From: a virus
Lineage: Duplodnaviria; Caudoviricetes
Length of the DNA stretch: 25,395 nucleotides
IMG/VR virus record: IMGVR_UViG_3300020181_000030
Location: 1-25,395 of that record
Direction: 5' to 3' (one strand)
The notes under the pieces are model-generated. The model ran no database searches and was not told the DNA's origin. It saw nothing but the letters and a program-made list of their open reading frames with translations. Position numbers and translations under genes: made by a program. Shown here piece after piece: positions 1-25,395 of this stretch. The stretch's first letter is position 1, and every line of letters starts with the position of its first letter.

Positions 1-213
1 GACGCCGCCGTGCTCGCCCGTATGCGAACGCTGGTCGCCCGGTGGCGCACGACGATTTCGGTTCACCCGACCGACGCCGACCTCGTGCCGATCGGCTCCC
101 CGACCGTGTACGCGAACGCGCTGCTTACCGCGGTCGGTGACCCGGAGGCCGACGCCGGCTCGGGCGACCCGCCCACCCTGTCGCTTACCTTCGCCGTCCC
201 GACCGTCGCCTAG
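1..213 (+). CDS. Tail tube (major tail) protein, C-terminal part, truncated by window edge
   Basis: Frame is open from base 1 to TAG at 213. It lies directly upstream of the chaperone and tape measure genes and has a beta-rich tube-like end (PEADAGSGDPPTLSLTFAV). Confidence 0.6.
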   Translation, partial: DAAVLARMRTLVARWRTTISVHPTDADLVPIGSPTVYANALLTAVGDPEADAGSGDPPTLSLTFAVPTVA

Positions 214-229
214 GCACGGAGGCTCCCCA

Positions 230-742
230 ATGGCTCCCGCCGAACCTGTCCGCTCATTCTCCGCCGTGAACCCCGACGACCCGGAACTCGTGACGCCCGG
301 GCCGACGACCGCCCTCGACGAGCTTCGCTCCGAACTCGCCGCCGAGGTCGCTACGCCGCCGCTCACGCTCGCCGTGCCCGGCCGGGCCGACTACGCCGTC
401 CGCTACTCGACCGAACTTGCTCACGAGCAACTCACCGCGTGGCGGAAAACCGCCCGGGATAAGCAGGCACCCGAGGGGATCGACGAACTCCGGTGGGCGT
501 CGATCGTCCTCGCGAATCAGGCCGAGGTCGTGCTCCGGAAGGGCGTCGAGGTCGAACTCGACGGCCGGCCGGCGAACTTTCAGCACGAGGGGTTCCGGGG
601 GATGCTCGGCGCCGACCTTCGCGCTACCGCCGCGGTGCGGAAGTTCTACGGCCGCGACTCCGACGTGATCGCCGCCGCCCTCGCCGTGATCCGGGCGGCC
701 GGCTACGGAGACGATGCCGACGCGGACCCTACGACGCTCTAG
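230..742 (+). CDS. Tail assembly chaperone (gpG-like)
   Basis: ATG at 230 with GGAGG at 218-222; located between tube and tape measure; acidic C-terminus ending DADPTTL. Confidence 0.7.
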   Translation: MAPAEPVRSFSAVNPDDPELVTPGPTTALDELRSELAAEVATPPLTLAVPGRADYAVRYSTELAHEQLTAWRKTARDKQAPEGIDELRWASIVLANQAEVVLRKGVEVELDGRPANFQHEGFRGMLGADLRATAAVRKFYGRDSDVIAAALAVIRAAGYGDDADADPTTL

Positions 743-909
743 CGGAGCGACTGGCCGCCGATCCTCGGGTGCGGAGCGCCGCTCGCGTCTCGCTCCTGTT
801 CGGCCTCGATCCGCTAGAGGTACTCGACGCCGATCGGCTCGATTGGACGATCCGGGCGGCGTGCTCGCTTGCCGCCGCCGAGGAACTCGACGCCGCCCGC
901 CGGCGCTAA
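727..909 (+). CDS. Tail assembly chaperone extension (gpT-like), probably reached by -1 frameshift; alternative GTG start at 769
   Basis: Protein-like frame (ALAERLAADPRVRSAARVSLLFGLDPLEVLD...) in the -1 frame. It overlaps the chaperone end, fills the gap before the tape measure gene and has no clear RBS. Confidence 0.55.
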   Translation, partial: PYDALAERLAADPRVRSAARVSLLFGLDPLEVLDADRLDWTIRAACSLAAAEELDAARRR

Positions 910-929
910 CCGCGAAGGGCGGGTGAGAC

Positions 930-3173
930 GTGGCCGACGAGGAACTCACTATTCGGGCGTCGCTACAGGACGACCTTTCCCGCCCGATCCGCCGTGTCCG
1001 CGACGAGCTAAAGGAAACCGTCGACGCGGCGCACAAGCTCAATCGAACCGTCGGGTTCGGCGGGCCGGCGTTCCGGACCCTCGATAAGAACCTCACCGCG
1101 GCGAGCCGGGCGGCGAAAGGTTCCGGGCAGAACATGCGGACGGCGACCCGGCAGGCCGACGGGTTCCGGAAGGCACTAACGAACGTCGACCGGGCCGCGA
1201 TCAACACGTCGAGGTCGCTTAACCGTGGCCTCGGCCGGGCGCTTACCGGCGTCGGAGTCGGCCTCGGCGCCGCCGGCGCCGCCGCTACGGCGTTCGGCCT
1301 CAGGGCGTCGGCCGGGTTCGAGCAATCGACGATCGCCTTTCAGGCACTCACCGGCTCCGTCGAGCGGGGCAATCAGCTATTCCGCGACCTCCGGGAACTC
1401 AACAAGCGGTCGCCGTTCGAGCTACGCGATATCACGACGGCGACTCAAACCCTCCTGCAATTCGGGTTCACCGCCGACAACGTGCTCGGCACCCTTACGA
1501 ACATCGGCGACGTGGCCGCCCTCTCGTCGAACCCGGTCGAGAACCTAAACCGGATCGCCGTCGCCCTCGGCCAAATCCGGGCCGCCGGCGTGCTCCGGGC
1601 GCAGGACTTGAATCAGCTAGTGCAGGCCGGTTTCCCGGCCTACGAACTCCTCGTCGACCTCACCGGAAAGACGATGGCCCAAATCCGGCAGGATATGGAG
1701 ACGGGCCTCGATATCCCCGCCGACGAGTTCGTCGCCGCCCTCTCCCGGATGCAAGGGCCGTTGCAACGCTACGCCGGCGGGATGCAAAAGCAGGCACTCA
1801 CGCTCGCCGGCATGTGGTCGACGTTCAAAGACACCGTGAACGAACAGCTAGCCGGCGTCGGCGCGCCGCTCGCCGAGGAGCTTAAAAAGCTCATGCCGGC
1901 GATAACAACCCTCGTCGGGAACCTCCTGTCGACGATCGGGCCGCCGCTCGCCCGGGTGCTCCTCGCCCTAATCCCGATCGCCGAGTCGCTGATTCAGGCG
2001 CTCGCCCCGATCCTCGTCGTGTTCGCCGACATAGCGGCCGAGGTGCTCCGAGGGATGGCGCCGGCGTTCGCCGACCTCGCCCGGCAAGGTCCGGAGATGG
2101 CCGCCGCGTTCGCCGACCTCGGCCGGGCGCTAACGCCGCTGATCCCCGTCCTCGGCGACCTCCTGATCGCCGCCGGCCCGCTCCTCGTGACGTTCCTCGA
2201 ACTCACGACGGCGCTCGTCGAGGGGTTCCTCCCGCTGATTACGCCGCTCCTGCAATGGCTCGCCGACTCGACGCAATCCTCGAAGGGGTTTCGGACCGTG
2301 CTCGCGCTCCTGCTCGGGACGCTCCTCGGCTACCGGGCACTCCGAGGGATCGCCGGCGCCGTGCAGACCTTCGCCGGCTCGATCCGGAACCTCGGCTCGG
2401 CCGGGCGGAGCGCCGCGCCCGGGATCGACGCCGCCGCCTCGTCGGCCTCGCGCCTTAACGCCGCCGTCGCCGGCGGAGCGGCCGGCGCCGCCGGGATCGG
2501 CGGGTTTATGTCGCTGATCGAGGGGCCGGTCGGAGCGAACGACCTCTCGCCGGCCGCCCGTAAGAAATGGGACGCGGCGAAGGGTCGGGCTATGGGCGCC
2601 GCCGCGATCGGCGGCGCTATCGGTACCGCCGTGATCCCCGTCCCGATCCTCGGAACAGCGGTCGGCGCCGCCGGCGGCGCGGTCGCGAGCATGGGGATCG
2701 ACGTCCTCCGCGGGTGGCTCGGCGACACGGCGTCGCCTCACCGGCGCCTCGCCCGCACCGCGGCGACGCACTCCTCGATCGACTCGTCGATCCCCGGGAA
2801 ACGCTCGATCACGTCGGGCTATCGGACGTGGGGCGTCGGAGCCGACTCCGACCATAAGGCGGGCGCCGCCCTCGATATCACCGGGTCGAACCTCCTCGGC
2901 TACGCGCAGGCGCTCCGGAACGCCGGCGGGTGGGCGTCGATTCACGACTCCGGGTCGGGCCGGCATTTGCACGCCGTGTACGGCGACACGGCGTCGCCTC
3001 GGCGTGGCGCCCTCGGCGACGGCGGGCACGGCGCCGGCGAGGGAATCCCGCCGGTACAGGTAAACGTCTACTACCCGAGCCGCGAACTCGACGTCGAGCG
3101 GGCCGTTACCCGAGGCATGGCGCGAGCGGAGCGGGACCGGATCGAGCGGGCACGGCGGGAAAGGGTCCGGTAA
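930..3173 (+). CDS. Tape measure protein with C-terminal M15/LAS-type Zn-peptidase-like domain
   Basis: Tape-measure N-terminal signature (FEQSTIAFQALTGS...SPFELRDI...LGQIRAAG), amphipathic Leu/Pro repeats, Gly/Ala-rich region, then ITSGYR...SDHKAGAALD...HLH. Confidence 0.93.
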   Translation: MADEELTIRASLQDDLSRPIRRVRDELKETVDAAHKLNRTVGFGGPAFRTLDKNLTAASRAAKGSGQNMRTATRQADGFRKALTNVDRAAINTSRSLNRGLGRALTGVGVGLGAAGAAATAFGLRASAGFEQSTIAFQALTGSVERGNQLFRDLRELNKRSPFELRDITTATQTLLQFGFTADNVLGTLTNIGDVAALSSNPVENLNRIAVALGQIRAAGVLRAQDLNQLVQAGFPAYELLVDLTGKTMAQIRQDMETGLDIPADEFVAALSRMQGPLQRYAGGMQKQALTLAGMWSTFKDTVNEQLAGVGAPLAEELKKLMPAITTLVGNLLSTIGPPLARVLLALIPIAESLIQALAPILVVFADIAAEVLRGMAPAFADLARQGPEMAAAFADLGRALTPLIPVLGDLLIAAGPLLVTFLELTTALVEGFLPLITPLLQWLADSTQSSKGFRTVLALLLGTLLGYRALRGIAGAVQTFAGSIRNLGSAGRSAAPGIDAAASSASRLNAAVAGGAAGAAGIGGFMSLIEGPVGANDLSPAARKKWDAAKGRAMGAAAIGGAIGTAVIPVPILGTAVGAAGGAVASMGIDVLRGWLGDTASPHRRLARTAATHSSIDSSIPGKRSITSGYRTWGVGADSDHKAGAALDITGSNLLGYAQALRNAGGWASIHDSGSGRHLHAVYGDTASPRRGALGDGGHGAGEGIPPVQVNVYYPSRELDVERAVTRGMARAERDRIERARRERVR
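2720..3000 (+). repeat. Perfect 20-bp direct repeat CGGCGACACGGCGTCGCCTC (2720-2739 and 2981-3000) flanking the peptidase domain
   Basis: Read directly from the sequence; both copies encode GDTASP. Confidence 0.9.
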
Positions 3174-3890
3174 GTGGCTACCGTCGAACTCACCACGACC
3201 GGCCGTGTCGCCGCCTCGACCGGGCATCCCCGATGCGTGATCCGTCACCACGAAATGACGGAGTTCGCCGTCGAACTCACGGCGACGAACCCGGCGAACG
3301 ATCACCGCGGCCTCGGACCCGAGTTCGTGTCGATCGACCGGGCCGGCATGTTCCCGCTGTTCGTCCGGAAAGGCGACCGGCTCCGCGAGTCGACCCTCTC
3401 GGGCGTGATCGCCTCCGGTCCCGAGGTCGACGCGCCCGGCGTCGAGGCCGCCCTACAAATCCTGGTCGCGATCGTCCGTCTCGCCGAGCCGGTCGTGATC
3501 GCGTTCGGTCCCCTAGAGGCGGGCACGTGGTATGTCTCGAACCTCGATATCCGGGCGGTTCGCCGGCAACCCGGCACCAACGCGGCGAATTGGGTCGAGG
3601 TCGAACTCGAAATCGTCGAGCACAAGCTCGACCCGCTCCCGCCGGCGCCGATTCCCCAACTCGCCCCGACGCCGATCGCCGCCGCTCCCCCGGCGCCCGC
3701 CCCGGTGGCGCCCGCGACCTCGGCGCCGACGCCCGGTCCCCGAACGCACACGATCGTTCGAGGCGACACCTTGTGGGATTTGGCCGGCCGGTACTACCGG
3801 GATAACTACCAATGGCGCCGGATCGCCGACGCGAACGGCGTCCGCGACCCTCGAAAGCTCGTGATCGGGCAACGCCTCACGATCCCGTAA
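3174..3890 (+). CDS. LysM-domain baseplate/tail-tube initiator protein (P2 gpU+gpX-like)
   Basis: C-terminal LysM (HTIVRGDTLWDLAGRYY...WRRIADAN...LVIGQRLTIP) after a Pro/Ala linker; immediately follows the tape measure gene. Confidence 0.88.
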   Translation: MATVELTTTGRVAASTGHPRCVIRHHEMTEFAVELTATNPANDHRGLGPEFVSIDRAGMFPLFVRKGDRLRESTLSGVIASGPEVDAPGVEAALQILVAIVRLAEPVVIAFGPLEAGTWYVSNLDIRAVRRQPGTNAANWVEVELEIVEHKLDPLPPAPIPQLAPTPIAAAPPAPAPVAPATSAPTPGPRTHTIVRGDTLWDLAGRYYRDNYQWRRIADANGVRDPRKLVIGQRLTIP

Positions 3891-4090
3891 TGAGCCAGCA
3901 CGACGCCCGCTCCGACGTCGACGCCCTCGTGCGGGCACCGTGGCGGGTCGGCCGGTCCGTCGGACGCACCGTGTACGCCGTCCTAGAGGCCGGAGACGTC
4001 CTCGTCGGGCTGTTCGACTCCCGGGAGCTAGCGGAGGCCGCCGTCGCCGCTCATAACCTCACGGTGGGCGTCTCACCGCCGCAGGGCTAG
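3890..4090 (+). CDS. Small hypothetical protein (66 aa, WRVGRSVGRTVY motif)
   Basis: TAATG coupling to the LysM gene; GC3-rich codons; protein-like sequence. Confidence 0.7.
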   Translation: MSQHDARSDVDALVRAPWRVGRSVGRTVYAVLEAGDVLVGLFDSRELAEAAVAAHNLTVGVSPPQG

Positions 4091-4097
4091 GCGTCCC

Positions 4098-4133
4098 CGA
4101 CCCGGCCGGCCGGGTCGCCTACCCTTTCAGGTC
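4098..4133 (+). promoter_or_regulatory. 20-bp perfect palindrome followed by TACCCT -10-like hexamer; putative leaderless promoter
   Basis: CGACCCGGCCGGCCGGGTCG at 4098-4117; TACCCT at 4120-4125, 8 nt before GTG 4134; no SD sequence. Confidence 0.5.
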
Positions 4134-5963
4134 GTGCCGACCCTCTCCGCCGAGGCAATCGCCGGCTACGGATACGCCGCCGGGTGGCGCGGCGAGGCGC
4201 TCGTGATCGCGACGGCGATCGCCCTCGCCGAGTCGAGCGGCCGAACCGACGCCGTGGGCGACGTCAATCTCACGGTGAGCGGCGAGAAATCGGTCGGGTT
4301 GTGGCAGATCAACTATCGGCCGGCCCGGGACGCCCTCGGCGGCCCTCGCGACCCGAACCGGAACCTCGACCCGGCGACGAACGCCCGGAACGCCTACGGG
4401 ATTAGCTCGGGTGGCACGAAATGGTCGCCGTGGTCGACCTACACGAACGGCGCCTACCGGAAACACCTCGACGCCGCCCGGGCCGGCGCCCGGCTCGTCG
4501 AGGAGCGCGGCGGGACGGCCGGCACGGCCTACTCGACGTCGACGTCGACGATCCCCGGCTCGAACGCCTCCGCCGGCGCCCGCTCCCCGAACCGGATATC
4601 GCCGTCGGCTCCGTACTCGCCGACCGGGCACGCCGAGGCGATCGAGGTCGGCGGCCGGACGCTGCTCGAACTCGTCGGGCACCGCCTCCTCGACGCCTCG
4701 CTCGACCTCACTCACTCGGCGATCCCCGAGCTTTCGTTTACGGTGCACCTCGCGCCGGGCGGGATGATTAACCGGCTCACCGAGCATTTCGTCGAGGGCG
4801 TCGAGGTCGCCTACGGCGAACTCCGGTTCGTCGTCTCGGCGATCGAGGTCGGCCCGTCGGATGCCGGGATGCAACTCACCGTCACCGCCCGGTCGCGTGG
4901 CATGAGCCGGCTCCGGAAGAAAGACGCCGGCACCTTCGCGAACGTGTCGCCCTCCGAGGTCGCCTATCAGGGCGCGCTCTACGCGAAATCGGGCTACGTG
5001 ATCGAAGGGTCGGCGGCCCGGGCGACGATCGCCCCGGAGAAACGGGACAACGGGAAAACCGAATCGTGGTATGAGCTAATCGAGCGCCTCGCCGGCGAGC
5101 TTGGGTTCGTGTTCTTCGAGACGGGCCGAACCCTCTATTTCGGCCGGCCGACGTGGCTTATCGGGCAGGCGCTCCCCTTCGAGGCGCAGTTTCAATACCG
5201 CCTCGGGAAAGACATTCCGACGGCGCCGACGTGGCGGCGCACGGCCGACGACGAGGAACGCTCGACGACGATCGAACTCGACGTGCCGCTCCGCCTCGGC
5301 TCGAAGGTCCGGCCCGGGCACCGGCTCGAATTCGACGGCGTGTCGGTCGCCGTCGCCGGTAAGTACCTCGTGACGGCGGTTAGCTGGTCACCGACGGACC
5401 CGACCGGCCTCGTGCATATCGCCGCCGAGAAACCGGTCGACCCGACCCCGACGGCCGACCCGATCACCGGCGAACCGAAAACGGCGACGGCGGCGACGGC
5501 GGCGACGAGCGTTACCGCGGCCGCTCAGAACGGGAAGGCGAGCGCCCTCGATTTCGTGTCGGTGGCGCTCGCTCAGGTCGGCGATTCCTACGTGTACGGC
5601 GCCGAGGTGCGCCTCGACGACGCCGACCCCGACCGGTTCGACTGTTCGGAGCTAGTGCAATGGGCGTGCGCGCGGGTGGGCGTCACGATCCCCGACGGCT
5701 CCTCGGCGCAGGAGGCGGCGACGACCCGGATCAGTGTCGAACAGGCCGCCCGCACCCGGGGCGCCCTCCTGTTCCACCCGGGGCACGTCGCGATCTCGCT
5801 CGGCGACGGGAAGAACACCGTCGAGGCTATGGGCCGGAAGTACGGCGTCGTTCAGGGCACGATCGCCTCCCGGTTCCGCACGGCCGGGCTGATTAAGGGG
5901 ATGCAATACGGCGGAAGCTCGGCGACGGGCGGATCGGGCGGCGCGATCGCCGTGGTCGACTAG
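4134..5963 (+). CDS. Baseplate hub protein fused to N-terminal lytic transglycosylase and C-terminal NlpC/P60 peptidase
   Basis: AIALAESSG...GLWQIN...DPATNA...WSPWSTY (lysozyme-like SLT); ESWYELIERLAGELGFVFFE...LYFG (gpD/gp27-like hub); YVYGAE...FDCSELVQWA...GHVAI...VEA (NlpC/P60 Cys-His). Confidence 0.88.
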   Translation: MPTLSAEAIAGYGYAAGWRGEALVIATAIALAESSGRTDAVGDVNLTVSGEKSVGLWQINYRPARDALGGPRDPNRNLDPATNARNAYGISSGGTKWSPWSTYTNGAYRKHLDAARAGARLVEERGGTAGTAYSTSTSTIPGSNASAGARSPNRISPSAPYSPTGHAEAIEVGGRTLLELVGHRLLDASLDLTHSAIPELSFTVHLAPGGMINRLTEHFVEGVEVAYGELRFVVSAIEVGPSDAGMQLTVTARSRGMSRLRKKDAGTFANVSPSEVAYQGALYAKSGYVIEGSAARATIAPEKRDNGKTESWYELIERLAGELGFVFFETGRTLYFGRPTWLIGQALPFEAQFQYRLGKDIPTAPTWRRTADDEERSTTIELDVPLRLGSKVRPGHRLEFDGVSVAVAGKYLVTAVSWSPTDPTGLVHIAAEKPVDPTPTADPITGEPKTATAATAATSVTAAAQNGKASALDFVSVALAQVGDSYVYGAEVRLDDADPDRFDCSELVQWACARVGVTIPDGSSAQEAATTRISVEQAARTRGALLFHPGHVAISLGDGKNTVEAMGRKYGVVQGTIASRFRTAGLIKGMQYGGSSATGGSGGAIAVVD

Positions 5964-6370
5964 TGGCCGCCGGCGTGTGGCGCGGGACCGTGAGCCGGAT
6001 CACCGGCGGGCAAGTGTGGCTCACCGTGCCGCGGCTGATCGCCCGAGGCGAGGTCGGCCCGGTGATATCGGCCGTCGATCCGGCGAACCTAGAGGCGGGC
6101 GTGCGGGTGATCGTCGGGCTAGTCGAGGGCCGACCCGACGACCTCGCGATCCTCGGCCGGGCCGACGGGCAGGGCGGCCTACCGCCCGGGTTCCTCGACT
6201 GGCTCACGGCGACACTCGACGACCTCGCCGCCGCCGCCGCCGCCCTCGAAGCGGCCGACACGGCGCTAGCGGCCGCCGACGCCGCCCTAGACGCCCGCCT
6301 CGACGCCCTCGAATCGGCGCCGGCCGTCGAGGTCGACGAGTCGCTTATCTGGCTCGTGGTGAACCCCTAG
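5963..6370 (+). CDS. Baseplate spike-like protein (gpV-type OB-fold plus coiled coil)
   Basis: Follows the hub with TAGTG coupling. The N-terminus (WRGTVSRI...VPRL...GVRVIVGLVEGRPDDLAILG) fits the spike OB-fold pattern and is followed by Ala-rich heptads. Confidence 0.65.
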   Translation: MAAGVWRGTVSRITGGQVWLTVPRLIARGEVGPVISAVDPANLEAGVRVIVGLVEGRPDDLAILGRADGQGGLPPGFLDWLTATLDDLAAAAAALEAADTALAAADAALDARLDALESAPAVEVDESLIWLVVNP

Positions 6371-7329
6371 TGCCGACCTACGCGCCAAAACGGCTCGGGC
6401 AACTCGTCGTCGGGACCGGCGCGACGACGTTCTACACGACGCCCGCCGACACGACCACGATCGTTAAGAACGTCGTCGTCGCGAACACGACGCCGGGCGC
6501 GGTCGGCCTCAACCTCTCCGCCGTGCCGGCCGGCGGCGTCGCCTCCGCCGCGAACCGGCTCGTGCCCGGGACGCTGATCGGCGCCTATTCGGTCGTGACG
6601 TTCGACCTCTCGACCGTGCTCGCCGCCGGCGACCTCCTCGTCGCCTCCGCGGCCGCCGCCGGCGCCCTCGTGGTCACCGTCTCGGGCGTCGAGCTACCCG
6701 GCTCGAACGGCCTCTCGGCCGGGTCGGTGCTCACGCCCGGGCCGGCGTTCGGCCTCCCGGTCGCCCTCGGAACAGCGGCCGCCGAGGGCACAAGTCCCGA
6801 CCTCGCCCGGGCCGATCACGTGCACGCCGGGATCACCACGACGGCGCCGCTCGACGGCGCTACGGCCGCCGCCCTCGGCGCCGAGCTACGGGCCGCCCGA
6901 GGGGATCACCGACACAAAACCGTCACCGACGCGACGGCGCCGCTCGACCCGGCCGCCGCCGCCGCTATCGGCGCCTCGGGCCTCGCCGCGCGGGCGGATC
7001 ACGTGCACCGCTCGAATTTCCGGGTGCTCGGGATCGGGGCGTCGTTGCAAGGGTCGGCGCCGGCGAACGGGCCGTTTCTGATTCAGGCCGGCACCGTCGT
7101 TACCGCCCTCTCCGCCGGCGGCGAACACGACCTCACGTTCCCGACCCCGTTCCCGAACGGCCTCGTCGCCGCGTGGGTAACACCCGGGTTCTACGGCGCC
7201 GGGTGGTTCGCTCAGGTCGCCGACGGCGGCTACACGCTCGCCAAATTCCGGTGGCGGGCCGTGCTCGACAACGGGACCGTATGGGCAGGCGCGACCGTGC
7301 GGGCGAATTGGTGGGCGCTCGGGTGGTGA
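6370..7329 (+). CDS. Tail fibre/adhesin protein 1 (three ARxDHxH repeats, C-terminal gp53/H-type-lectin-like domain)
   Basis: GTG at 6370 coupled to TAG; ARADHVH, ARGDHRH and ARADHVH; C-terminus IQAGTV...LTFPTPFPNG...WWALGW. Confidence 0.75.
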   Translation: MPTYAPKRLGQLVVGTGATTFYTTPADTTTIVKNVVVANTTPGAVGLNLSAVPAGGVASAANRLVPGTLIGAYSVVTFDLSTVLAAGDLLVASAAAAGALVVTVSGVELPGSNGLSAGSVLTPGPAFGLPVALGTAAAEGTSPDLARADHVHAGITTTAPLDGATAAALGAELRAARGDHRHKTVTDATAPLDPAAAAAIGASGLAARADHVHRSNFRVLGIGASLQGSAPANGPFLIQAGTVVTALSAGGEHDLTFPTPFPNGLVAAWVTPGFYGAGWFAQVADGGYTLAKFRWRAVLDNGTVWAGATVRANWWALGW

Positions 7330-7333
7330 TCTA

Positions 7334-8335
7334 GTGCCGTTCACGCCGAAACGCCTCGCCCAATTCGTCGCCCCGGTCGCCGAGACGAGCTACTACACGG
7401 TTCCGCCCGACACGCTCGCCCTTGTGAAACAGGCCGTCGTCGCGAACACGAGCGGAGCGCCGGCGTCGCTGTTCCTCTCCGTCGTGCCCGCCGGCGGCGT
7501 CGCCGGGAATCAGAACCGGGTCGTGCCCGGGACGTCGATCCCGCCCGGCGCGTCGGCCGTGCTCGACCTCACCACGGTTATGGCCGCCGGCGATTTCATC
7601 TCCGCCCGCTCCGACGTCGCCGGCGCCCTCACCGTCACCGTGTCGGGCGCCGAGGAACCCGGCTCGAACGGAGCTAGCTCGGGAACCGTCGTCGGGTCGC
7701 CGCCGGCGTTCGGGTCGCCGGTCGCCGCCGACGGCGTGGCGAACGCCGAGGGCGTCTCGACGCTCCTCGCCCGGGCCGACCATAAGCACCGGGCCGGGCC
7801 GCTGGTCGTGCCGAACATCGCCGCCCGGGATTCGCTCGTGCCGTTCGACGGGCTGATCGTCTATGTCGCCTCGAATTGGACCTACTACGGGTGGCGGGCG
7901 ACGCAATGGGTCGCGTTGCAGGACGTCAACTTTTCCGGGACGGCGCCGGTCGCCGTCTCCCTCACCGCCGCCTCGGCCGGCGCCTCGACCTCCGTCGCCC
8001 GGGCCGATCACCGACACAAGCTCGACGACACCGGGTGGCAAACGCCCACCTATCAAAACGGGTGGGTCAACTACGACAACCTCTACGGGCCGGCCGGCTA
8101 CCGGCGGATCGGCGGGATTACATACCTCCGCGGGCTGATCCGTTCGGGCACGATGGGCGCCGTCGCGTTCGTGCTCCCCGGCGGGTACCGGCCCGGGATC
8201 AAGTACCTGTTTGGCGTCGACCGCGACACTCAGGCGCATGGCCGAATGGATATCGGCACCGACGGGACCGTCGTCCCCGTTTTCGGTGCCGCCGGCTATT
8301 TCCAAATCACCTGCTGTTTCGTGGCGGAGAACTAG
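7334..8335 (+). CDS. Tail fibre/adhesin protein 2, paralog of protein 1 with a different head domain
   Basis: N-terminal ~110 aa are similar to the 6370 gene (PKRL...VVANT...VPAGGVA...NR.VPGT...TVSG.E.PGSNG); two ARADHxH motifs; head DDTGWQ...NGWVNY...YRRIGGITYLRGLI. Confidence 0.78.
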   Translation: MPFTPKRLAQFVAPVAETSYYTVPPDTLALVKQAVVANTSGAPASLFLSVVPAGGVAGNQNRVVPGTSIPPGASAVLDLTTVMAAGDFISARSDVAGALTVTVSGAEEPGSNGASSGTVVGSPPAFGSPVAADGVANAEGVSTLLARADHKHRAGPLVVPNIAARDSLVPFDGLIVYVASNWTYYGWRATQWVALQDVNFSGTAPVAVSLTAASAGASTSVARADHRHKLDDTGWQTPTYQNGWVNYDNLYGPAGYRRIGGITYLRGLIRSGTMGAVAFVLPGGYRPGIKYLFGVDRDTQAHGRMDIGTDGTVVPVFGAAGYFQITCCFVAEN

Positions 8336-8345
8336 GGGGGGCGCC

Positions 8346-8888
8346 GTGGGATTCTCGCTCTTGCTACCGACACCGCCGGCGCTCACGGCCGAGCTACCGG
8401 CCGATACGGCGGCCGCTCCTGTCGCCGGCGCCTCCGCCCTCGCGGCCCGAGGTGACCACGTACACCGCGCCGTCGGCGGTACCGCTCCGCCCGTCGTCGG
8501 ATCAGCGGCGGCCGCCGCCGGCGCCGCCCTCCTCGCCGCCCGAGCCGACCACGTGCACGCCCTCGACGACACCGGGTGGATAGCGGCGCCGCTCGCCGCC
8601 GGGTGGTCGAACTACTCCGCCGGCTCCTACTCCGCCGCTGCTTACCGGAAGGTCGGGCCGATCGTTTCGATAACGGGCCTCGTGAAAGGGCCGCCGGGAA
8701 CCGACGTGTTCATTCTCCCTGTCGGGTTCCGACCGGCCCGGAACCTCCACTTTGCGACGGTCCAAAACGGGTCGTGGGGAATCCTCGAAATCACCGTCAC
8801 CGTCGGTACGCCCGGCGCCGTGAAAGCGAACACGGCGGCCGGGTCGGCGACGTGGCTTTCGATCGAGTGCACGTTCATGGTGGCCTAG
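8346..8888 (+). CDS. Short tail fibre/receptor-binding protein 3
   Basis: GTG at 8346 after a G-rich RBS; two ARxDHVH motifs; head DDTGW...GWSNY...YRKVG...LPVGFRP related to that of protein 2. Confidence 0.72.
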   Translation: MGFSLLLPTPPALTAELPADTAAAPVAGASALAARGDHVHRAVGGTAPPVVGSAAAAAGAALLAARADHVHALDDTGWIAAPLAAGWSNYSAGSYSAAAYRKVGPIVSITGLVKGPPGTDVFILPVGFRPARNLHFATVQNGSWGILEITVTVGTPGAVKANTAAGSATWLSIECTFMVA

Positions 8889-9707
8889 GTGGGCGTCTCT
8901 CAACTTCCCGCCGTCGACCTCCCGCCCGGGATGCTGGCTCCCTACGCCGGCGGCGCGGCGCCGCCCGGGTGGCTCCTATGCGACGGCGCCCTCGTGAGCC
9001 GGGCCGCCTATCCCGGGTTGTTCGCGGCGATCGGCACGACCTACGGCGCCGGCGACGGGTCGACGACGTTCGGCCTCCCCGACCTCCGAGGCCGGGTGAT
9101 CGTCGGGACGGGCGCCGGCGACGGCCTCACCGACCGGTCCCGAGGCGCTACCGGCGGCGCCGAAACGGTCGCCCTCTCGCTCGCTCAGGCGCCGTCGCAC
9201 TCGCACACGGTGAATAGCCATAGCCACGGCGGCGCAACCGGCGGGCACTCGGCCGATCACTCGCACTCGGGCACGACCGGCGACCACGACCGGACGCACT
9301 ACCACGGCCTCGAAGGGCACCACCACGCTATTAATCACTGGCATTTCGGCAACGTCGGAAACATGCATTGGAACGCGACGCAAACGCACGGTCACCACGG
9401 CCGAGGCGGGATCGCCGCCGAGGGGCCGTGGGAGGGCGCTAACTGGGCCGGCGCCGTCGCTGTCAACGTGCAAGGTGACGCCGAGGCGGCGCCGGGCGGC
9501 CGGAACATCTCGGGCGGCGCGGGATGGGGCGGAGGATGGCAGGGCGCCAACACCGGGCACCTGCACGGTTTCTCGACCGGCGGCGCGTCCGTCAATCACA
9601 CTCACGGCGTTACCGCCGAGGCGCCCGGAACGAACGCTCAGGGGGGCGGAGCGGCTCACGAGAACATGCCGCCGTTCCTCTCGACCCCGTACATCATCAA
9701 AACCTAG
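8889..9707 (+). CDS. Tail collar domain protein with His-rich (HxH) needle tip
   Basis: Collar motif PPGWLLCDG...SRAAYPGLFAAIGTTYGAGDGSTTFGLPDLRGR; many HxH motifs; ends HENMPPF...YIIKT. Confidence 0.88.
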   Translation: MGVSQLPAVDLPPGMLAPYAGGAAPPGWLLCDGALVSRAAYPGLFAAIGTTYGAGDGSTTFGLPDLRGRVIVGTGAGDGLTDRSRGATGGAETVALSLAQAPSHSHTVNSHSHGGATGGHSADHSHSGTTGDHDRTHYHGLEGHHHAINHWHFGNVGNMHWNATQTHGHHGRGGIAAEGPWEGANWAGAVAVNVQGDAEAAPGGRNISGGAGWGGGWQGANTGHLHGFSTGGASVNHTHGVTAEAPGTNAQGGGAAHENMPPFLSTPYIIKT

Positions 9708-9719
9708 GAGGCTCCCGGA

Positions 9720-9926
9720 ATGCCGATCGAACAGGTCTACGTGTGCCCGGTTTGTGGGGCGCGCACCGAACCGATTTTCACCGGCGGCCCGGCCGTGTCG
9801 GTGACGTGGATTAACGTCGGCGACCCTTACGCCGGGATCGAATATCTCGACCGGTGGGAGTGCGTCGGGAAATGGGCGGCGCAGAAGGTCAAAGCGGGCG
9901 CCGACGCCGAGCGGGTCGCCGGCTAG
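9720..9926 (+). CDS. Small Cys-containing protein (CPVC...WEC), possible fibre assembly chaperone
   Basis: AGGAGG RBS and ATG start; directly follows the collar-fibre gene. Function is inferred from position only. Confidence 0.65.
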   Translation: MPIEQVYVCPVCGARTEPIFTGGPAVSVTWINVGDPYAGIEYLDRWECVGKWAAQKVKAGADAERVAG

Positions 9927-10219
9927 TGGCTCGCATCCTGTCGCACCCGTTCCGGCTCCTCGGGAACGGATCCGTCGCGACGGTCGAGCAGGCAAGCGAC
10001 GACGCGAACGCCGAGCAACTCGCGACGCTCGTGCTCACCCGGCGAGGCGAGCGGGTGCTCGTGCCCGGGTTCGGCGTCGGTATCGACGCGTTCGCCGTGT
10101 TCGACCCGACCGATATCGCCGCCGGCGTGGCGCTGTTCGGGCCGCCCGTCACCCTTACCGACGTCGAGGTCCGTCCCCGCTCGGAGACGGTGCTCGACGT
10201 CCTCGTGCGCTTCGAGTAG
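9926..10219 (+). CDS. Baseplate wedge protein, gpW/gp25-like
   Basis: GTG at 9926 coupled to TAG; LSHPFRL...LTRRGERVLVPGFG motif; precedes the J-like gene. Confidence 0.82.
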   Translation: MARILSHPFRLLGNGSVATVEQASDDANAEQLATLVLTRRGERVLVPGFGVGIDAFAVFDPTDIAAGVALFGPPVTLTDVEVRPRSETVLDVLVRFE

Positions 10220-10229
10220 GAGTCGCCTT

Positions 10230-11345
10230 ATGCCGTCACCCGACCTCCGCCAATACTCCGACCTCATCCTCTACGACGCCGATCCGATCGACCTCGTGGA
10301 ACGGGCGCGGGCCGACGCGGCGGTGAAGCTCCCCGGGTGGGTTCCTCGGGAGGGCAATACCGAGCTAGTGCTGATCGAGGCGATCGCCCTCGAAGTCGCC
10401 GAGCTTGTGTTCGCGGTGAACCGGCTACCCGGCTCGATCGTCGAGGTGTTGCTCCGCCTCTACGGGATCACACGGTCGCTCGGGACGCCGCCGAGGGCCG
10501 ACCTCCTCGTGACGGTGAGCGACACGCTCGGGCACACGGTGCCGATCGGGACGCGGTTCCGTCTCGACGTGCCCGGCTCCGACCCGGTGACGTTCACGCT
10601 CGACGTCGGCCTCGTGATCGCCCCGGGTGCTAGCTCGGGCACGGTCGCCGCGACCGGGACGACGAACACGGAGGCGGCGAACGGGACGCCGGCGGCGACC
10701 CCGCTCGTGCTCCTCGACGCCGTGCCGTTCGTCGAGGGCGCCGCCCTCGCGACGGAGCCGAGCGGCGGGACCGGCCCGGAAACCGAATCGGAGTGGCGCG
10801 ACCGGGGCGTCGAGATGTTCGCCCGCCTCGTCTCTACGCTCGTGCTCCCGGAGCATTTCACGTCGGAGGTACTGACGAACCCCGACGTGTACCGGGCGAC
10901 CACGATCGACAATTGGAACGTCTCCGTCGCCGCGAACGGGCACGTAACCGTCGCCGTGCTCGGCGAGGGCGGCGTCGCCCTCACCGGCGGCCGGAAAACC
11001 GAGCTAGAGGCCGGCCTCGAAGCGAAGGCGCTCGCGAACCTCGACGTGCACGTGATCGACCCGGTAATCACCGACGTCAATGTGACGGTGACGGTTCGCC
11101 GGCTCCCCGGGTTCACGACCGCGGCGGTACAGGCGAACGTCGCCGCCGTGCTCGACGCCTACCTCGACCCGGACGCGTGGCCGTGGTCGGGCGTCGTGCG
11201 CCGCAATGAGCTAATCGCTCGGATCGACGGCGCCGCCGGCGTCGACTACGTAGAGACGCTCGCCGTGCCGGCGGCCGACCTCCCGCTCGTGGGCGTCGCG
11301 CCGCTCGCCGACCTCGGAACCGTGTCCGTGACGGTGACCGGCTAA
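10230..11345 (+). CDS. Baseplate J/gp47-like wedge protein
   Basis: W.PREGNTELVLIEA, VPIGTRF, GGTGPETESEWRDR and IDGAAGVDYV motifs; size 371 aa; gene order. Confidence 0.92.
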   Translation: MPSPDLRQYSDLILYDADPIDLVERARADAAVKLPGWVPREGNTELVLIEAIALEVAELVFAVNRLPGSIVEVLLRLYGITRSLGTPPRADLLVTVSDTLGHTVPIGTRFRLDVPGSDPVTFTLDVGLVIAPGASSGTVAATGTTNTEAANGTPAATPLVLLDAVPFVEGAALATEPSGGTGPETESEWRDRGVEMFARLVSTLVLPEHFTSEVLTNPDVYRATTIDNWNVSVAANGHVTVAVLGEGGVALTGGRKTELEAGLEAKALANLDVHVIDPVITDVNVTVTVRRLPGFTTAAVQANVAAVLDAYLDPDAWPWSGVVRRNELIARIDGAAGVDYVETLAVPAADLPLVGVAPLADLGTVSVTVTG

Positions 11346-12007
11346 TGCCTCCGCCTCGGCCGGCCGTGTCGGCGACCACGACCCGCATTTACGAGCGGCT
11401 CCCGGAGTTCTACCGGGTGGCCGACGAGGAGCAGGGCGCCGGCCCGAACGGCTATCCGCTGCTCCGCTATCTGTCGCTGATCGCCGACCAGCTAGGCGAC
11501 CTCGAAACGCTCGTCGATCGGGTCGCCTATTTCCCGCCCGACGAGGGGGGCGTGCCGGGCGACACGAGCGACCTTACCGACCCGGCGACGGCCGACCTCG
11601 GGTGGCTCGGGTGGCTCGGGCAACTTGTCGGCGTCGACGCCGGCACTCTCGACGTGTCGATCCGCCGGCAGGCGGTCGCGAACGCCTCGGCCGGGTGGCG
11701 GGCCGGTACCCGCGAAGCGATCGCTACCGCGGCGCGTTCCGTGCTCACCGGGACACGCTACGTCGCCGTCGAGTCGCACTACGGCGGCGATCCGTGGCGG
11801 ATCGAGGTCCGAACCCGCGTGTCGGAGACGCCGAACGCGTCGCTCGTCGTGCCGGCGATCGTCGCCGCCCGGGCGAAACCGGCCGGCGTCGAGCTAGTGC
11901 ACACTCAGTACGAGGCGACGTGGGCCGCGATCGAGACGGCTAATCCGACGTGGGCGCACCTCGAACCCGACACGTGGACAGGAATCGAAGAATCCGGGAT
12001 GCCCTAG
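11345..12007 (+). CDS. Baseplate/tail protein, P2 gpI-like
   Basis: IYERLPEFYR.AD...LLRYL...DPATADLGWLGWLGQLVGV...GT..AI...KPAGV; follows the J-like gene. Confidence 0.88.
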   Translation: MPPPRPAVSATTTRIYERLPEFYRVADEEQGAGPNGYPLLRYLSLIADQLGDLETLVDRVAYFPPDEGGVPGDTSDLTDPATADLGWLGWLGQLVGVDAGTLDVSIRRQAVANASAGWRAGTREAIATAARSVLTGTRYVAVESHYGGDPWRIEVRTRVSETPNASLVVPAIVAARAKPAGVELVHTQYEATWAAIETANPTWAHLEPDTWTGIEESGMP

Positions 12008-12019
12008 GAGGTCTAGCTC

Positions 12020-13348
12020 GTGGCCGTTACGACGTCTCCCCGTTTGCTCCTCACCCGCTGGTCGGCGGGAACGGACCCGTTCACCCGGGCGCAACTCGAC
12101 CAGGATTTCGCCGACCTCGACAACCTCGCCGCGATCGACATTCAGGGCACCCTCGCGGCCCGGCCGGCGCCGGGCGTGCGAGGCCGGTACTACTTCGCGA
12201 CGGACGACGGGCCGGGCCGCCTCTACCGGGACACCGGCACCGCGTGGACGCTGATTAACGTCGCCTCGGCCCTCGGAGGGGCGGCGCCTACCGCCTCCGC
12301 CGTCGGCGACGCCGGCGCCGAGGGCGCCTCGACGGCCGCCGCCCGGGCCGATCACCGACACGCCCGGGAAGGGTTCGGGAACGTCACCGCGGCGACGACC
12401 TACGGGATCGCGGCGGCGAACGGCGCGGCGGCGACCGTCGCCCGCTCCGACCACACTCACGGATCGCCGGCGCTCGCGAGTTCGGTTCCGGTCGGGATCG
12501 TCCCCGACGCCGTGGCCGCCGTGGGCGTCGCTACGACGCCGGCCCGGGCCGACCACGTGCACGCGATCGTCGCCGACACGCCGGGCACCTCGGCGGTCGC
12601 CGACACGGCGGCCGAGGGCGTCTCGACGGCGTTCGCCCGGGCGGATCACCGGCACGGCCGGGAGTCGCTCGTCGCCCTCCGCGATTCGCTGATCCCGGCC
12701 GGCACGGTCGCTCAGTACGCCGGCGCCGCCGCGCCCGCCGGGTGGCTGTTCTGCGACGGTGCGGCCGTCGCCCGGGCGACCTATCCGAACCTGTTCGCCG
12801 CGCTCGGCGGTACGGCGTCGCCGTGGGGCGTGCCGGGCGGCGCGGGCGGGTCGACGTTCAATGTGCCTGACCTTCGAGGCCGGGCGCCGGTCGGCGTCGG
12901 GACCGGGGCCGGCCTCACCGCCCGGGCGCTCGCCGCCGCCGGCGGAGCGGAAACGGTGACGCTCGGGATCGGACAGGTTCCGTCCCACGGGCACACGGCG
13001 AACGACCACACGCACGTGGTGACGGGCGACGGGAATCACCAGCACGGCGCGACGACGGATTGGGAGCCGGATCACCGGCACCCGGTGGGCGGGTCGACGG
13101 GACACGTGATCGGGTTCCGGACCGACGTCGCCGCGAACGGCCTCGTGTCGGGCGGCCTCGAACGGCTCACGTTCTCCGATATGCAAAACGCCGGCGGGCA
13201 CGACCACGGCCTCGCGACCGACTGGCGTTCGCACTCCCACGGAACCGGCGGCGCCTCGAACCGGGGCACCGACGCTCAGGGCGGAGGCGGCGCTCACGAG
13301 AACATGCCGCCGTTCGTCGCTATTGGGTTCATCATCAAAGCTCACTAG
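12020..13348 (+). CDS. Side tail fibre (four ARxDHxH repeats, collar domain, His-rich tip)
   Basis: AGGAGG RBS; follows the gpI-like gene; PAGWLFCDG...TFNVPDLRGR collar; ends HENMPPF...FIIKAH. Confidence 0.88.
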   Translation: MAVTTSPRLLLTRWSAGTDPFTRAQLDQDFADLDNLAAIDIQGTLAARPAPGVRGRYYFATDDGPGRLYRDTGTAWTLINVASALGGAAPTASAVGDAGAEGASTAAARADHRHAREGFGNVTAATTYGIAAANGAAATVARSDHTHGSPALASSVPVGIVPDAVAAVGVATTPARADHVHAIVADTPGTSAVADTAAEGVSTAFARADHRHGRESLVALRDSLIPAGTVAQYAGAAAPAGWLFCDGAAVARATYPNLFAALGGTASPWGVPGGAGGSTFNVPDLRGRAPVGVGTGAGLTARALAAAGGAETVTLGIGQVPSHGHTANDHTHVVTGDGNHQHGATTDWEPDHRHPVGGSTGHVIGFRTDVAANGLVSGGLERLTFSDMQNAGGHDHGLATDWRSHSHGTGGASNRGTDAQGGGGAHENMPPFVAIGFIIKAH

Positions 13349-24381: not shown

Positions 24382-24803
24382 TCGACGAGGACGCCCTAAT
24401 CGCCGGGATCGAACTCGTCGGGAGGTGCGGCGCGACGAACACGGAGCTAGGGCACCTCTACGACGACGACGAACCGCCGCCCGGGTGGACGGAAGGGGAA
24501 CGGGTGCCGGCCGAGGCGGCGTCGTGGTACGCGCACGCCCAATTCCGAGGCGCCCGGGTCACCGTCGAGGGCTACCGCTCCCCGGTCGAGGCCGTCGAGG
24601 CGCTCGCCCGCCGGCTCCTGTCGGGTGCCCGGTGCGTCAAATGCGGCCGGGAGATACGCCTCGACTCCCGCCCGGGCGGGTGCCGGTGGCGTCGGAACGG
24701 GCCGCACTACTACCGAGGATGCGACGGCGGCCGAGGCGGCGCCGAACCGCTCGAACCGAACCGGGCCGAACGCCGCCGCCGGCGGAAAGGGGCGACACGG
24801 TGA
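24378..24803 (+). CDS. Hypothetical phage protein with CxxC...C...C zinc-binding C-terminus
   Basis: GAGGAGG RBS; WYAHAQFRG...EALARRLLSGARCVKCG; ends with a PNRAERRR tail. Confidence 0.75.
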   Translation: MIDEDALIAGIELVGRCGATNTELGHLYDDDEPPPGWTEGERVPAEAASWYAHAQFRGARVTVEGYRSPVEAVEALARRLLSGARCVKCGREIRLDSRPGGCRWRRNGPHYYRGCDGGRGGAEPLEPNRAERRRRRKGATR

Positions 24804-25249
24804 CGCCCGAACAGGCGATCGCCCTCGACCGGCCGTGCCGGCTCGCCGGCGAGACACTCCGACCCGAGTTCCGTTCCCTCGTCGGCGGGCGCCTCGCCCG
24901 CTGGTCGCTCGTGCTCACGGTGAACTCGGGCTATGAGTGAATCGAGCAGGGATACGGCGGGCCGGTCTGGCACGCCTCAATCGCCCGGCACCCGGTCGAG
25001 CCAATGGTCGACCCGGTGCTCGTGGCGCTCGCCCGCGGCCTCGCCCGAGGCTCCCTCGACGGCGTGGGCGACCCGACCCTCGGCGAATGGCACGACGTCG
25101 GCCTCCGGGCCGTTCACCTCCGCCGGCGCCTCGCTCCCGCCGAGGAGTCGATCGTCGGCGAGGTGCTCGATATCCGGGCCGACGAGGCGGAGGTCGCCCG
25201 CCGGCTCGCTCCTGTCGCCCACCTACTCCCGAAAGGCTGGTCAGAATGA
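24800..25249 (+). CDS. 149-codon reading frame with one in-frame TGA (codon 47): candidate selenoprotein, otherwise a pseudogene or two split ORFs
   Basis: GTG at 24800 with GTGA overlap. The frame continues through TGA 24938-24940 (VNSGYE*IEQGYGGPVWHASI) to TGA 25249, which overlaps the next ATG. A SECIS-like hairpin follows the internal TGA. Confidence 0.6.
24956..24976 (+). promoter_or_regulatory. Putative bacterial SECIS element
   Basis: GGCG-G-GCC-GGTCT-GGC-A-CGCC stem-loop starting 16 nt after the in-frame TGA, with a G-led apical loop. Confidence 0.5.
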
Positions 25250-25395
25250 CGAATGAGGAACGCTCGAAACTCGCCGCCGAGGCGCTCCGAGGCGACGCCG
25301 ACCGCCGGGTGCGCGCCGCCGTCGCCGCCGCCGCCGAACTCGACGCCGACGAGTCGATCCGGGATAAGCGAACCGGGGCGCTCCGGATCGTCCGG
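25246..25395 (+). CDS. Hypothetical protein, N-terminal part, truncated by window edge
   Basis: GAAAGG RBS, ATGA overlap, MTNEERSKLAAEALRGD..., open to the end of the window. Confidence 0.65.
   Translation, partial: MTNEERSKLAAEALRGDADRRVRAAVAAAAELDADESIRDKRTGALRIVR

Follow-up and report, generated by a model that had tools for sequence, protein, structure and literature searches.

Bacterial selenoprotein genes, whose prototype is Escherichia coli fdhF, contain an in-frame UGA for selenocysteine (Sec) that is followed on its 3' side, inside the open reading frame (ORF), by a hairpin known as the SECIS element (for Sec insertion sequence). The loop of this hairpin is G-led and contains GU, its spacing from the UGA is 16-37 nt, Cys-containing homologues exist, and decoding depends on the SelA, SelB and tRNA-Sec of the cell. 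We analysed 25,395 bp of an uncultured virus (IMG/VR record IMGVR_UViG_3300020181_000030, about 72% GC; the whole of this stretch is called the window below), in which a gene at 24800-25249 shows the same arrangement, its dependence on the host machinery being predicted. It differs from the bacterial genes in that it is phage-borne, its protein could be assigned neither to a listed family nor to a recognised fold, and Sec forms far outnumber Cys forms in its family. Comparison with its relatives makes it highly likely that UGA 24938-24940 is read as Sec by the SelB and Sec-tRNA(Sec) of the host, through a SECIS at 24957-24975, giving a predicted selenoprotein of 149 residues with Sec47. The gene very probably represents a SelB/SECIS-decoded selenoprotein family of soil phages.

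Viral precedents for the reading of a UGA differ from this gene in several respects. In the A1 protein of phage Qbeta, a UGA stop is read through and a long product is made beside the short one; a standard tRNA inserts Trp at low frequency, no SECIS is involved, and the extension is a separate domain. The present gene resembles A1 in that reading through a UGA is predicted to yield a longer product, but here the UGA lies inside one fold, Cys is found in relatives, and a SECIS-type hairpin follows. As regards viral selenoproteins (here and below, papers are cited for the portions of their text that were available), a review of viral recoding names, in the available portion, only two poxvirus glutathione peroxidases, the GPx1-like protein of molluscum contagiosum and the GPx4-like protein of fowlpox (PMC8310308). 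Like the phage family, these are virus-encoded and use the Sec machinery of the host (a prediction in the case of the phages), and the fowlpox SECIS also lies in the coding region. However, they belong to eukaryotic viruses, derive from captured cellular glutathione peroxidase genes and have eukaryotic-type SECIS elements, whereas the phage family has a bacterial-type SECIS and no cellular selenoprotein counterpart of it was found. Our searches on phage selenoproteins found no bacteriophage case in the literature searchable, and the words phage and virus are absent from the available portion of a 2026 review of the prokaryotic selenoproteome (PMC13188914).

We think it probable that this is the first bacteriophage selenoprotein family: widespread, virus-borne, of a new fold, with Sec codon and SECIS as the rule, and with the SECIS placed in the most conserved peptide motif and copying the apex found in the fdhA genes of the hosts. 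Such phages, whose hosts belong to at least five bacterial phyla, would hijack the host SelB and tie a protein of their replication module to the Sec capacity and selenium of the host.

The interrupted reading frame and its TGA

An earlier, sequence-only reading of the window had joined an ORF ending at 24940 to another starting at 25004, and the coordinates on which it relied proved all correct. The two ORFs share one frame, and TGA 24938-24940 is its sole interruption between GTG 24800 and the TGA stop ending at 25249. The gene comprises the following features.

24800..25249, + strand: whole predicted selenoprotein gene, 149 codons plus stop (GTG start, TGA stop at 25247-25249)
24784..24792, + strand: Shine-Dalgarno (SD)-like GGAAAGGGG, 7 nt 5' of GTG 24800, read from the sequence and presumed to be functional
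24800..24937, + strand: N-terminal 46 codons (…HCRLAxE…LTVNSGYE), Cys13 included, conserved at the protein level (homologues 40-55% identical)
24938..24940, + strand: in-frame TGA, the predicted Sec47 codon, TGA in 135 of 138 homologous junctions
24941..25246, + strand: C-terminal 102 codons (IEQGYGGPVWHAS … HLRRRL … DIR …), from homologue alignments

The coding character is kept across the TGA, as the sequence-only reading had held: the high/low/high GC content at codon positions 1, 2 and 3 of frame 24800 continues without interruption, and the 21 codons between the in-frame TGA and ATG 25004 read IEQGYGGPVWHASIARHPVEP. Coupling to both neighbours was also borne out, since GTG 24800 overlaps the TGA stop of the upstream ORF at 24801-24803 (GTGA) and the stop of the gene at 25247-25249 overlaps the ATG of the next ORF at 25246 (ATGA). 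When the window sequence was inspected, no SD-like sequence was seen 5' of ATG 25004, in line with the earlier observation, nor before the UGA junction; the SD-like sequence listed above precedes GTG 24800 instead. Homologues are collinear with the window protein over residues 1-149, in a single frame. TGA is an ordinary stop in this phage, where it ends 15 of the 33 candidate ORFs; an alternative genetic code was rejected on this ground and because table 11 leaves the long tail genes uninterrupted. An antisense ORF at 24977-25222 (- strand, 81 codons) has a coding-like GC1/GC2/GC3 of 0.89/0.49/0.89. We took it as the mirror image of a sense frame with high GC1 and GC3, because all genes of the window that have support lie on the + strand.

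When the joined protein, carrying X at position 47, was used in a word-indexed search, 64 relatives were obtained. Six of these were full length and about 55 were proteins of ~100 residues beginning directly after the X column. At the DNA level, TGA occupied the column in 77 of 80 loci on viral contigs, in 13 of 16 loci from bacteria, represented by genomes or metagenome-assembled genomes (MAGs), and in all of 57 further non-redundant metagenome junctions. Pooling of viral, genome and metagenome contigs resulted in 142 non-redundant junctions, 138 of them with standard spacing, in which the codon was TGA 135 times, TGC (Cys) twice and TTA once, and never TAA or TAG. The four rows kept outside the 138 are L094, which has TGA and one codon fewer before the hairpin, and three distant, fused homologues without TGA. 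The latter (L095:3022-3078, L096:2249-2305 and L097:745-801, from Binataceae and from a MAG of a deltaproteobacterium) have one residue fewer ahead of GGPVWHAS. Close to the Sec column they carry Ser, Thr and Ser, and six or seven residues upstream there is a 'TCD' motif with a Cys.

Because the homologous proteins share only 40-55% identity, and are conserved on both sides of the TGA, the conservation of this codon reflects selection and not a shared error. The idea that this contig alone carries an assembly error, a pseudogene or a nonsense mutation, for which nothing speaks beyond the bare presence of a stop codon, is refuted by the recurrence of TGA in 134 other non-redundant sequences from independent assemblies, with the protein conserved on both sides; we give it practically no chance.

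The junction might also separate two coupled genes, one for a 46-residue peptide and the other for a protein of ~100 residues reinitiating at the adjacent AUC, AUU, CUG or AUG, the two chains then assembling into one fold. The codon after TGA is ATC, CTG, ATT or CTC in most of the 135 sequences, and in 112 it is one of ATC, ATT, ATA, CTG, ATG and GTG, all of which are able to act as weak initiators. Moreover, gene callers annotate the C-terminal part alone, and 6 of the 79 TGA loci among the 86 rows of our tree have TGA-ATG, two of them (L020 and L078) with a decayed hairpin. However, a canonical start directly follows TGA in only 10 of the 135 (ATG 9, GTG 1, TTG none), and therefore the conserved C-terminal part cannot arise without decoding of the UGA; in 23 the codon is unable to initiate (CTC 13, CTA 3, CTT 2, and TTA, GAG, CAG, AAC and CGC 1 each). 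Coupled genes would also have to do without an SD-like sequence before the window junction, and would leave unexplained the exclusive use of TGA in the 138 junctions, the Cys codons in fused relatives and the selection on the hairpin 18-37 nt downstream. The sequence-only reading had named the occurrence of the halves as separate genes elsewhere as evidence that would count against it; among 175 loci they were never separate genes at different places. We regard the coupled-gene explanation as very unlikely.

Sec/Cys pairing is the basis of SECIS-independent selenoprotein prediction (PMC13188914). A profile search of 1.84 billion representatives returned 999 clusters at E <= 0.001; among the best 150 of these, 27 span the junction and the others start at profile positions 45-54, just past the TGA. 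The 27, together with four from the word-indexed search, were aligned as 31 full-length sense-codon homologues, whose residue in the Sec column is Cys in 16 cases, Pro, Glu, Val and Thr in 2 each, Gln, Asn, Trp, Gly and Leu in 1 each, and a gap in 2. This Cys count rests on protein sequences except for P0010, which is locus L068; TGC was confirmed in the DNA there and at L069, and the TTA (Leu) was seen in the DNA of P0007, which is L062. The W (P0004) and G (P0006) homologues may reflect a TGA read under another code by the gene caller. Inspection of the homologous column, which the sequence-only reading had proposed as a check, thus gives a conserved TGA (135/138) or Cys, with Trp once (codon unverified). 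A dominant UGA with Cys as the chief alternative, as seen in this comparison of sequences, is the classical Sec/Cys signature.

The same searches expose a systematic annotation error, in that public gene calls begin after the UGA or later in roughly 120 of the best 150 database representatives. The called product of the window itself (P0002) is the 81-aa piece from ATG 25004. P0003, P0008, P0011-P0065 and most of P0083-P0209 are truncated as well and start at any ATG or GTG past the UGA, in some cases at a GTG Val codon inside PVWHAS, the N-terminal 46 codons being left as a tiny ORF or uncalled.

The hairpin within the GGPVWHA codons

The hairpin was originally described as GGCGGGCC-GGUCU-GGCACGCC at 24956-24976, with its loop 23 nt past the UGA. 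In the alignment of 81 sequences a slightly shorter element is supported: the outermost pair of that 8-bp stem, 24956-24976 (18-38 when the U of UGA is counted as 0, a numbering used for all hairpin positions below), is kept in only 41 of the 81, and the extra lower pairing GGGAU/AUCGCC, present in the minimum free energy (MFE) fold of the window itself, is not predicted by RNAalifold. The parts of the element are listed here.

24957..24975, + strand: SECIS-like hairpin, stem pairs kept in 74-81 of 81 sequences, MFE -12.5 kcal/mol
24957-24975, 24958-24974, 24959-24973, 24961-24971, 24962-24970 and 24963-24969, + strand: hairpin stem pairs, with a G.A mismatch at 24960/24972
24964..24968, + strand: apex N-G-U-N'-U (here GGUCU), in which 24964 and 24967 are the covarying wobble bases of Pro and Val, and G24965 and U24966 are invariant

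The hairpin is carried by the codons of GGPVWHA (GGN GGN CCN GUN UGG CAY GCN) at +18 to +38. Four of its seven stem pairs (19-37, 21-35, 24-32 and 25-31) are dictated by the amino acids alone. The other three hinge on free wobble bases, and all of these are constrained: position +20 is C in 128, +23 is G in 120 and +35 is C in 131 of the 135 sequences, with third-position entropies of 0.37, 0.64 and 0.19 bits, respectively, as compared to 1.35 bits at Gly -7 (all four bases), 1.79 at Ala +38 and 1.06 at Tyr -4 (T 69, C 65). GGG, the codon favoured at +23, is otherwise a minor Gly codon here.

The two bases flanking the apical GU covary. N26:N29 is a Watson-Crick pair in 127 of the 135 sequences (GC 60, CG 50, AU 16, UA 1), the fraction expected for independent bases being 0.38, and the covariation observed in the 81-sequence alignment was matched by none of 500 shuffles and by no slid register. 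On a FastTree tree of 86 rows the state of the apical pair changes at least 33 times, and a double change from one Watson-Crick pair to another separates 6 of 27 sister pairs. The covariation that the sequence-only reading had asked to be examined is therefore present, together with synonymous constraint.

In the same 86 rows, all seven pairs are intact in 64 of the 73 TGA loci without a following ATG. Two of the three distant fused homologues without TGA (L095 and L096) have lost the wobble pattern but kept the peptide GGPVWHAS, which indicates that the peptide is constrained as protein and that the extra constraint on the RNA tracks the UGA. The most decayed hairpins among the TGA loci are those of L020 (4 of 7 pairs) and L078 (5 of 7), both of which have TGA-ATG. 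In these loci (L020:1621-1677 and L078:1621-1677, the L078 junction being the same as that of L090) the TGA is directly followed by the ATG, and the decayed hairpins read GGG GGT CCC GTA TGG CAT and GGC GGT CCT GTC TGG CAT, respectively. These lineages look like secondary splits of the predicted selenoprotein gene into two ordinary genes.

The model of bacterial SECIS elements has an apical loop of 3-9 nt, an upper stem of 4-16 bp and an MFE <= -7.5 kcal/mol (PMC13188914, legend of Fig. 2), with a G in the first two loop positions, mostly as N1-G-(G or U)-N-N2, and a spacing of 16-37 nt (PMC13188914). The window element agrees with all four published criteria: its loop GGUCU has 5 nt, with G at positions 1 and 2, and it has 7 pairs with one G.A mismatch, a 23-nt spacing and -12.5 kcal/mol. 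The hairpin of L088, the prophage copy of Ktedonobacteria brp13, has an MFE of -9.2 kcal/mol. SECIS hairpins have also been described as having stems of 6-8 bp and, at a distance of about 20 nt from the UGA, a conserved G in the loop (PMC4605307), and in E. coli fdhF the loop G23 and U24 are invariant, while U17 and G23 are SelB-binding bases whose mutation abolishes the reading of UGA (PMC8659212). The phage stem differs from fdhF in that it has no bulged U corresponding to U17 and a G.A mismatch instead. When SelB is bound, the G and the U are flipped outwards over a closing pair, an arrangement that would fit an N:N' pair covarying on either side of GU.

Four fdhA genes interrupted by a TGA in frame (…ARI-U-HSSTVPGLG…) were found in three genomes that also carry the phage gene, namely G001 (Ktedonobacteria) and the actinobacterial MAGs G002 and G004. 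Their SECIS reads GUSCCC-[G/A]GUCU-GGGSAC and shares with the phage element the apex CC-NGUN'-U-GG on a GC-rich stem of 6-7 bp. The fdhA elements are very uniform among themselves (L105:1924-1971; L106, L110 and L111), with a 6-bp GC stem and the apex [G/A]GUCU. They differ from the phage gene in the protein, in the codons and frame under the hairpin, in having a perfect stem and in lying 5 nt closer to the UGA. Since both hairpins sit in the same genomes, one SelB would have to read both. The GGUCUG apex that the sequence-only reading saw as shared with fdhF holds, and recurs in the SECIS of the hosts' own fdhA. When a covariance model built on 110 phage hairpins (R1) was run against the fdhA loci of the hosts, the only outcome was a local match to the 9-nt apex (7.8 bits, E 5.4); this search is uninformative because the model is dominated by primary sequence.

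The UGA and its hairpin could also be viewed as SECIS-independent programmed readthrough, or as a termination switch. In this view a leaky UGA is read by a tRNA that is near-cognate or a suppressor (one for Trp, or one for Cys with a UCA anticodon), a fixed ratio of the 46-residue peptide to the 149-residue protein results, and the hairpin serves only as a pause or stimulator. The base after TGA is A in 81 and C in 51 sequences, that is in 132 of the 135, and A or C after UGA is a weak termination context in E. coli. Readthrough would also be compatible with the persistence of the hairpin in the sense-codon loci and with the W of one database homologue (P0004, codon unverified), and both suppressor-like allo-tRNAs and tRNA-Cys with a UCA anticodon, mimicking tRNA-Sec, have been described in Acidobacteria and deltaproteobacteria (PMC5389517). 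On the other hand, Cys and not Trp is the chief sense replacement (16/31 as compared to 1 W), and the hairpin under selection is of the SECIS type, with the GU apex, the loop size and the spacing of bacterial SECIS elements, plus the fdhA apex of the hosts. We know of no hairpin-stimulated UGA readthrough in bacteria. Furthermore, the window contains no tRNA, suppressor tRNA included, and the lone weak tRNA-Sec-like match in a viral record was set aside as an ordinary tRNA-Gly/Glu pair. Taken together, these points make readthrough of this kind improbable.

Host Sec machinery and the weighing of the Sec reading

Insertion of Sec at this UGA would require SelA, SelB and tRNA-Sec, which were counted in the 16 genomes that carry homologues of the gene as a prophage. 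SelA was found over the curated cut-off in 14 of the 16 and SelB in 11. A tRNA-Sec was detected in all five genomes tested, with the Rfam model RF01852, which is not fully specific because it also passes its gathering score in the control genomes of Caulobacter, Thermus and Thermotoga, which we take to be without the Sec trait. Among 151 genomes sampled evenly across the phylum of G002, SelA was present in 103 (a tally that includes the unpublished genomes G017, G034, G064, G104, G136 and G164), and after this background sample host enrichment was rejected as evidence. The Sec machinery, for which the sequence-only reading had asked hosts to be checked, was thus seen in most carrying genomes, as something necessary for Sec insertion but without significant enrichment over the background. 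Neither a tRNA-Sec over the cut-off nor a suppressor tRNA or selD was found in five large viral records (three of them complete) or in the window; the phages would depend on the host.

The following observations weigh against the decoding of the UGA as Sec, or lessen the force of the evidence given above. The loci were collected by the peptide pattern GGPVWHA(S), so that the invariance of the peptide is partly by construction, the wobble bases being free. A strict tree test on well-supported branches was underpowered and not significant (p ~0.125): of the 5 independent pairs available to it, 4 were concordant, none was discordant and 1 was unchanged. The apical states that are not Watson-Crick are A.C 4, U.C 2, C.A 1 and G.G 1, and never G.U; the missing G.U counts against simple pairing in the plus-strand RNA, which predicts otherwise, the numbers being small, and these odd states may be due to the geometry that the apex adopts when bound by SelB, or to chance. 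The three sense-codon loci (TGC twice and TTA) keep a perfect hairpin, which could have another role or be a recent relic. The fold energy of the window element is unremarkable at 72% GC (z = 0.12 when 48 nt are folded, and z = -1.95 when the 23-nt hairpin is), and an Rfam scan of 24700-25395 gave two chance-level matches only and no SECIS family. About half of the sense-codon homologues have a residue other than Cys, and thus the Sec column is not strictly essential in the wider family. The GU of the phage hairpin is at +27/+28, as compared to +22/+23 in the four fdhA genes, 5 nt farther and still in the published range. As for the hosts, 14/16 with SelA against a background of 103/151 is no significant enrichment (binomial p ~0.07), and two carrying genomes lack SelA, a 0.9-Mb Patescibacteria bin and a 410-contig Acetobacteraceae MAG. 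The locus of the Patescibacteria bin is identical to that of an Acidobacteria MAG.

It is the comparative evidence (TGA in 135/138 junctions, constrained wobble bases and covariation), not the fold energy, that carries the case for a predicted Sec codon. The proposal of a 149-aa protein with Sec47 made in the sequence-only reading is supported by the conserved TGA, the Cys relatives and the covarying hairpin, all of them comparative observations.

In the mechanism that we propose, the SECIS hairpin at 24957-24975, embedded in the GGPVWHA codons, would bind and direct SelB, and host SelB with Sec-tRNA(Sec) would insert Sec at the UGA. Ribosomes that fail to recode would release the 46-residue peptide, so that the yield of full-length protein would then depend on the Sec capacity of the host and on its selenium supply. 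If this is true, phages can carry selenoprotein genes and exploit the SelB of their hosts, and each such phage would mark its host as a predicted Sec user, which could serve as a host-range marker. The family would add to the known selenoproteins one without known fold or function in which the Sec form is dominant, and this dominance would argue for a real catalytic need for selenium. It would also provide a case of dual coding, in which a SECIS is superimposed on an invariant peptide. Studies of how SelB recognises its target would gain a set of natural, compact SECIS variants, in which the N and N' around GU form any of the Watson-Crick pairs.

The protein, its neighbours and the rest of the window

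The joined sequence was modelled by AlphaFold2 with a 53-sequence alignment, which gave a single compact alpha+beta domain with a predicted local distance difference test (pLDDT) score of 97.1 and a predicted template modelling (pTM) score of 0.90. In the model, LTVNSGYE forms a strand (34-42) before the UGA and PVWHASIA another (56-64) after it, and strands of one domain on both sides of the UGA show that the two 'halves' belong to one fold. Sec47 opens a short helix (45-50) right after the beta strand. This strand-to-helix position, together with the chemistry that Sec usually performs, may tentatively suggest that Sec47 acts in redox reactions. Its resolving partner could be Cys13, which most members have.

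The sequence-only reading recognised no selenoprotein family, and the searches of Pfam, NCBIfam, PHROGs and the PDB agree in giving no convincing match. The window protein had no match at E <= 1 in Pfam, PHROGs and NCBIfam, nothing usable was obtained when the same three collections were scanned with the Cys homologues and with the C-terminal piece, and the 53 members gave only scattered single-member matches to families, at E >= 0.011. A sequence profile search of the PDB reached a best E of 0.13, Foldseek found nothing in the PDB at E <= 1e-3, and the ESM Atlas gave no usable lead for the natural Cys homologue P0010. In a wide search with VIA-align the best Z was 3.9, with several HIT-family entries at Z 3-3.9; a HIT-like fold was set aside, these scores being too weak. 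No match was obtained in GenBank phage records, either by tblastn with the joined protein and a Cys homologue (50,697 records) or by blastn with the last 2.4 kb of the window.

In other phages, the neighbours of the gene are RecA, ThyX, VRR-NUC, HNH, a DnaA/IstB-like ATPase, DUF5131 and DUF4326, that is, genes of replication, recombination and nucleotide metabolism. Tentatively, the protein may be viewed as a small enzyme with redox activity that belongs to the replication/recombination module of the phage. As regards synteny, six neighbouring ORFs of the window were compared with the other loci, and none has a relative there at 1.5-3 kb or less from the gene. Farther away, positions 1-13348 of the window (+ strand) hold the tail module of a phage of the contractile-tail type, with the following genes.

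2-742, + strand: tail assembly chaperone-like ORF
930-3173, + strand: tape measure
3174-3890, + strand: LysM protein
4134-5963, + strand: SLT + NlpC/P60 tail lysin
8889-9707 and 12020-13348, + strand: two tail-collar fibre proteins
9854-12007, + strand: baseplate gp25-like, J-like and P2-I-like proteins

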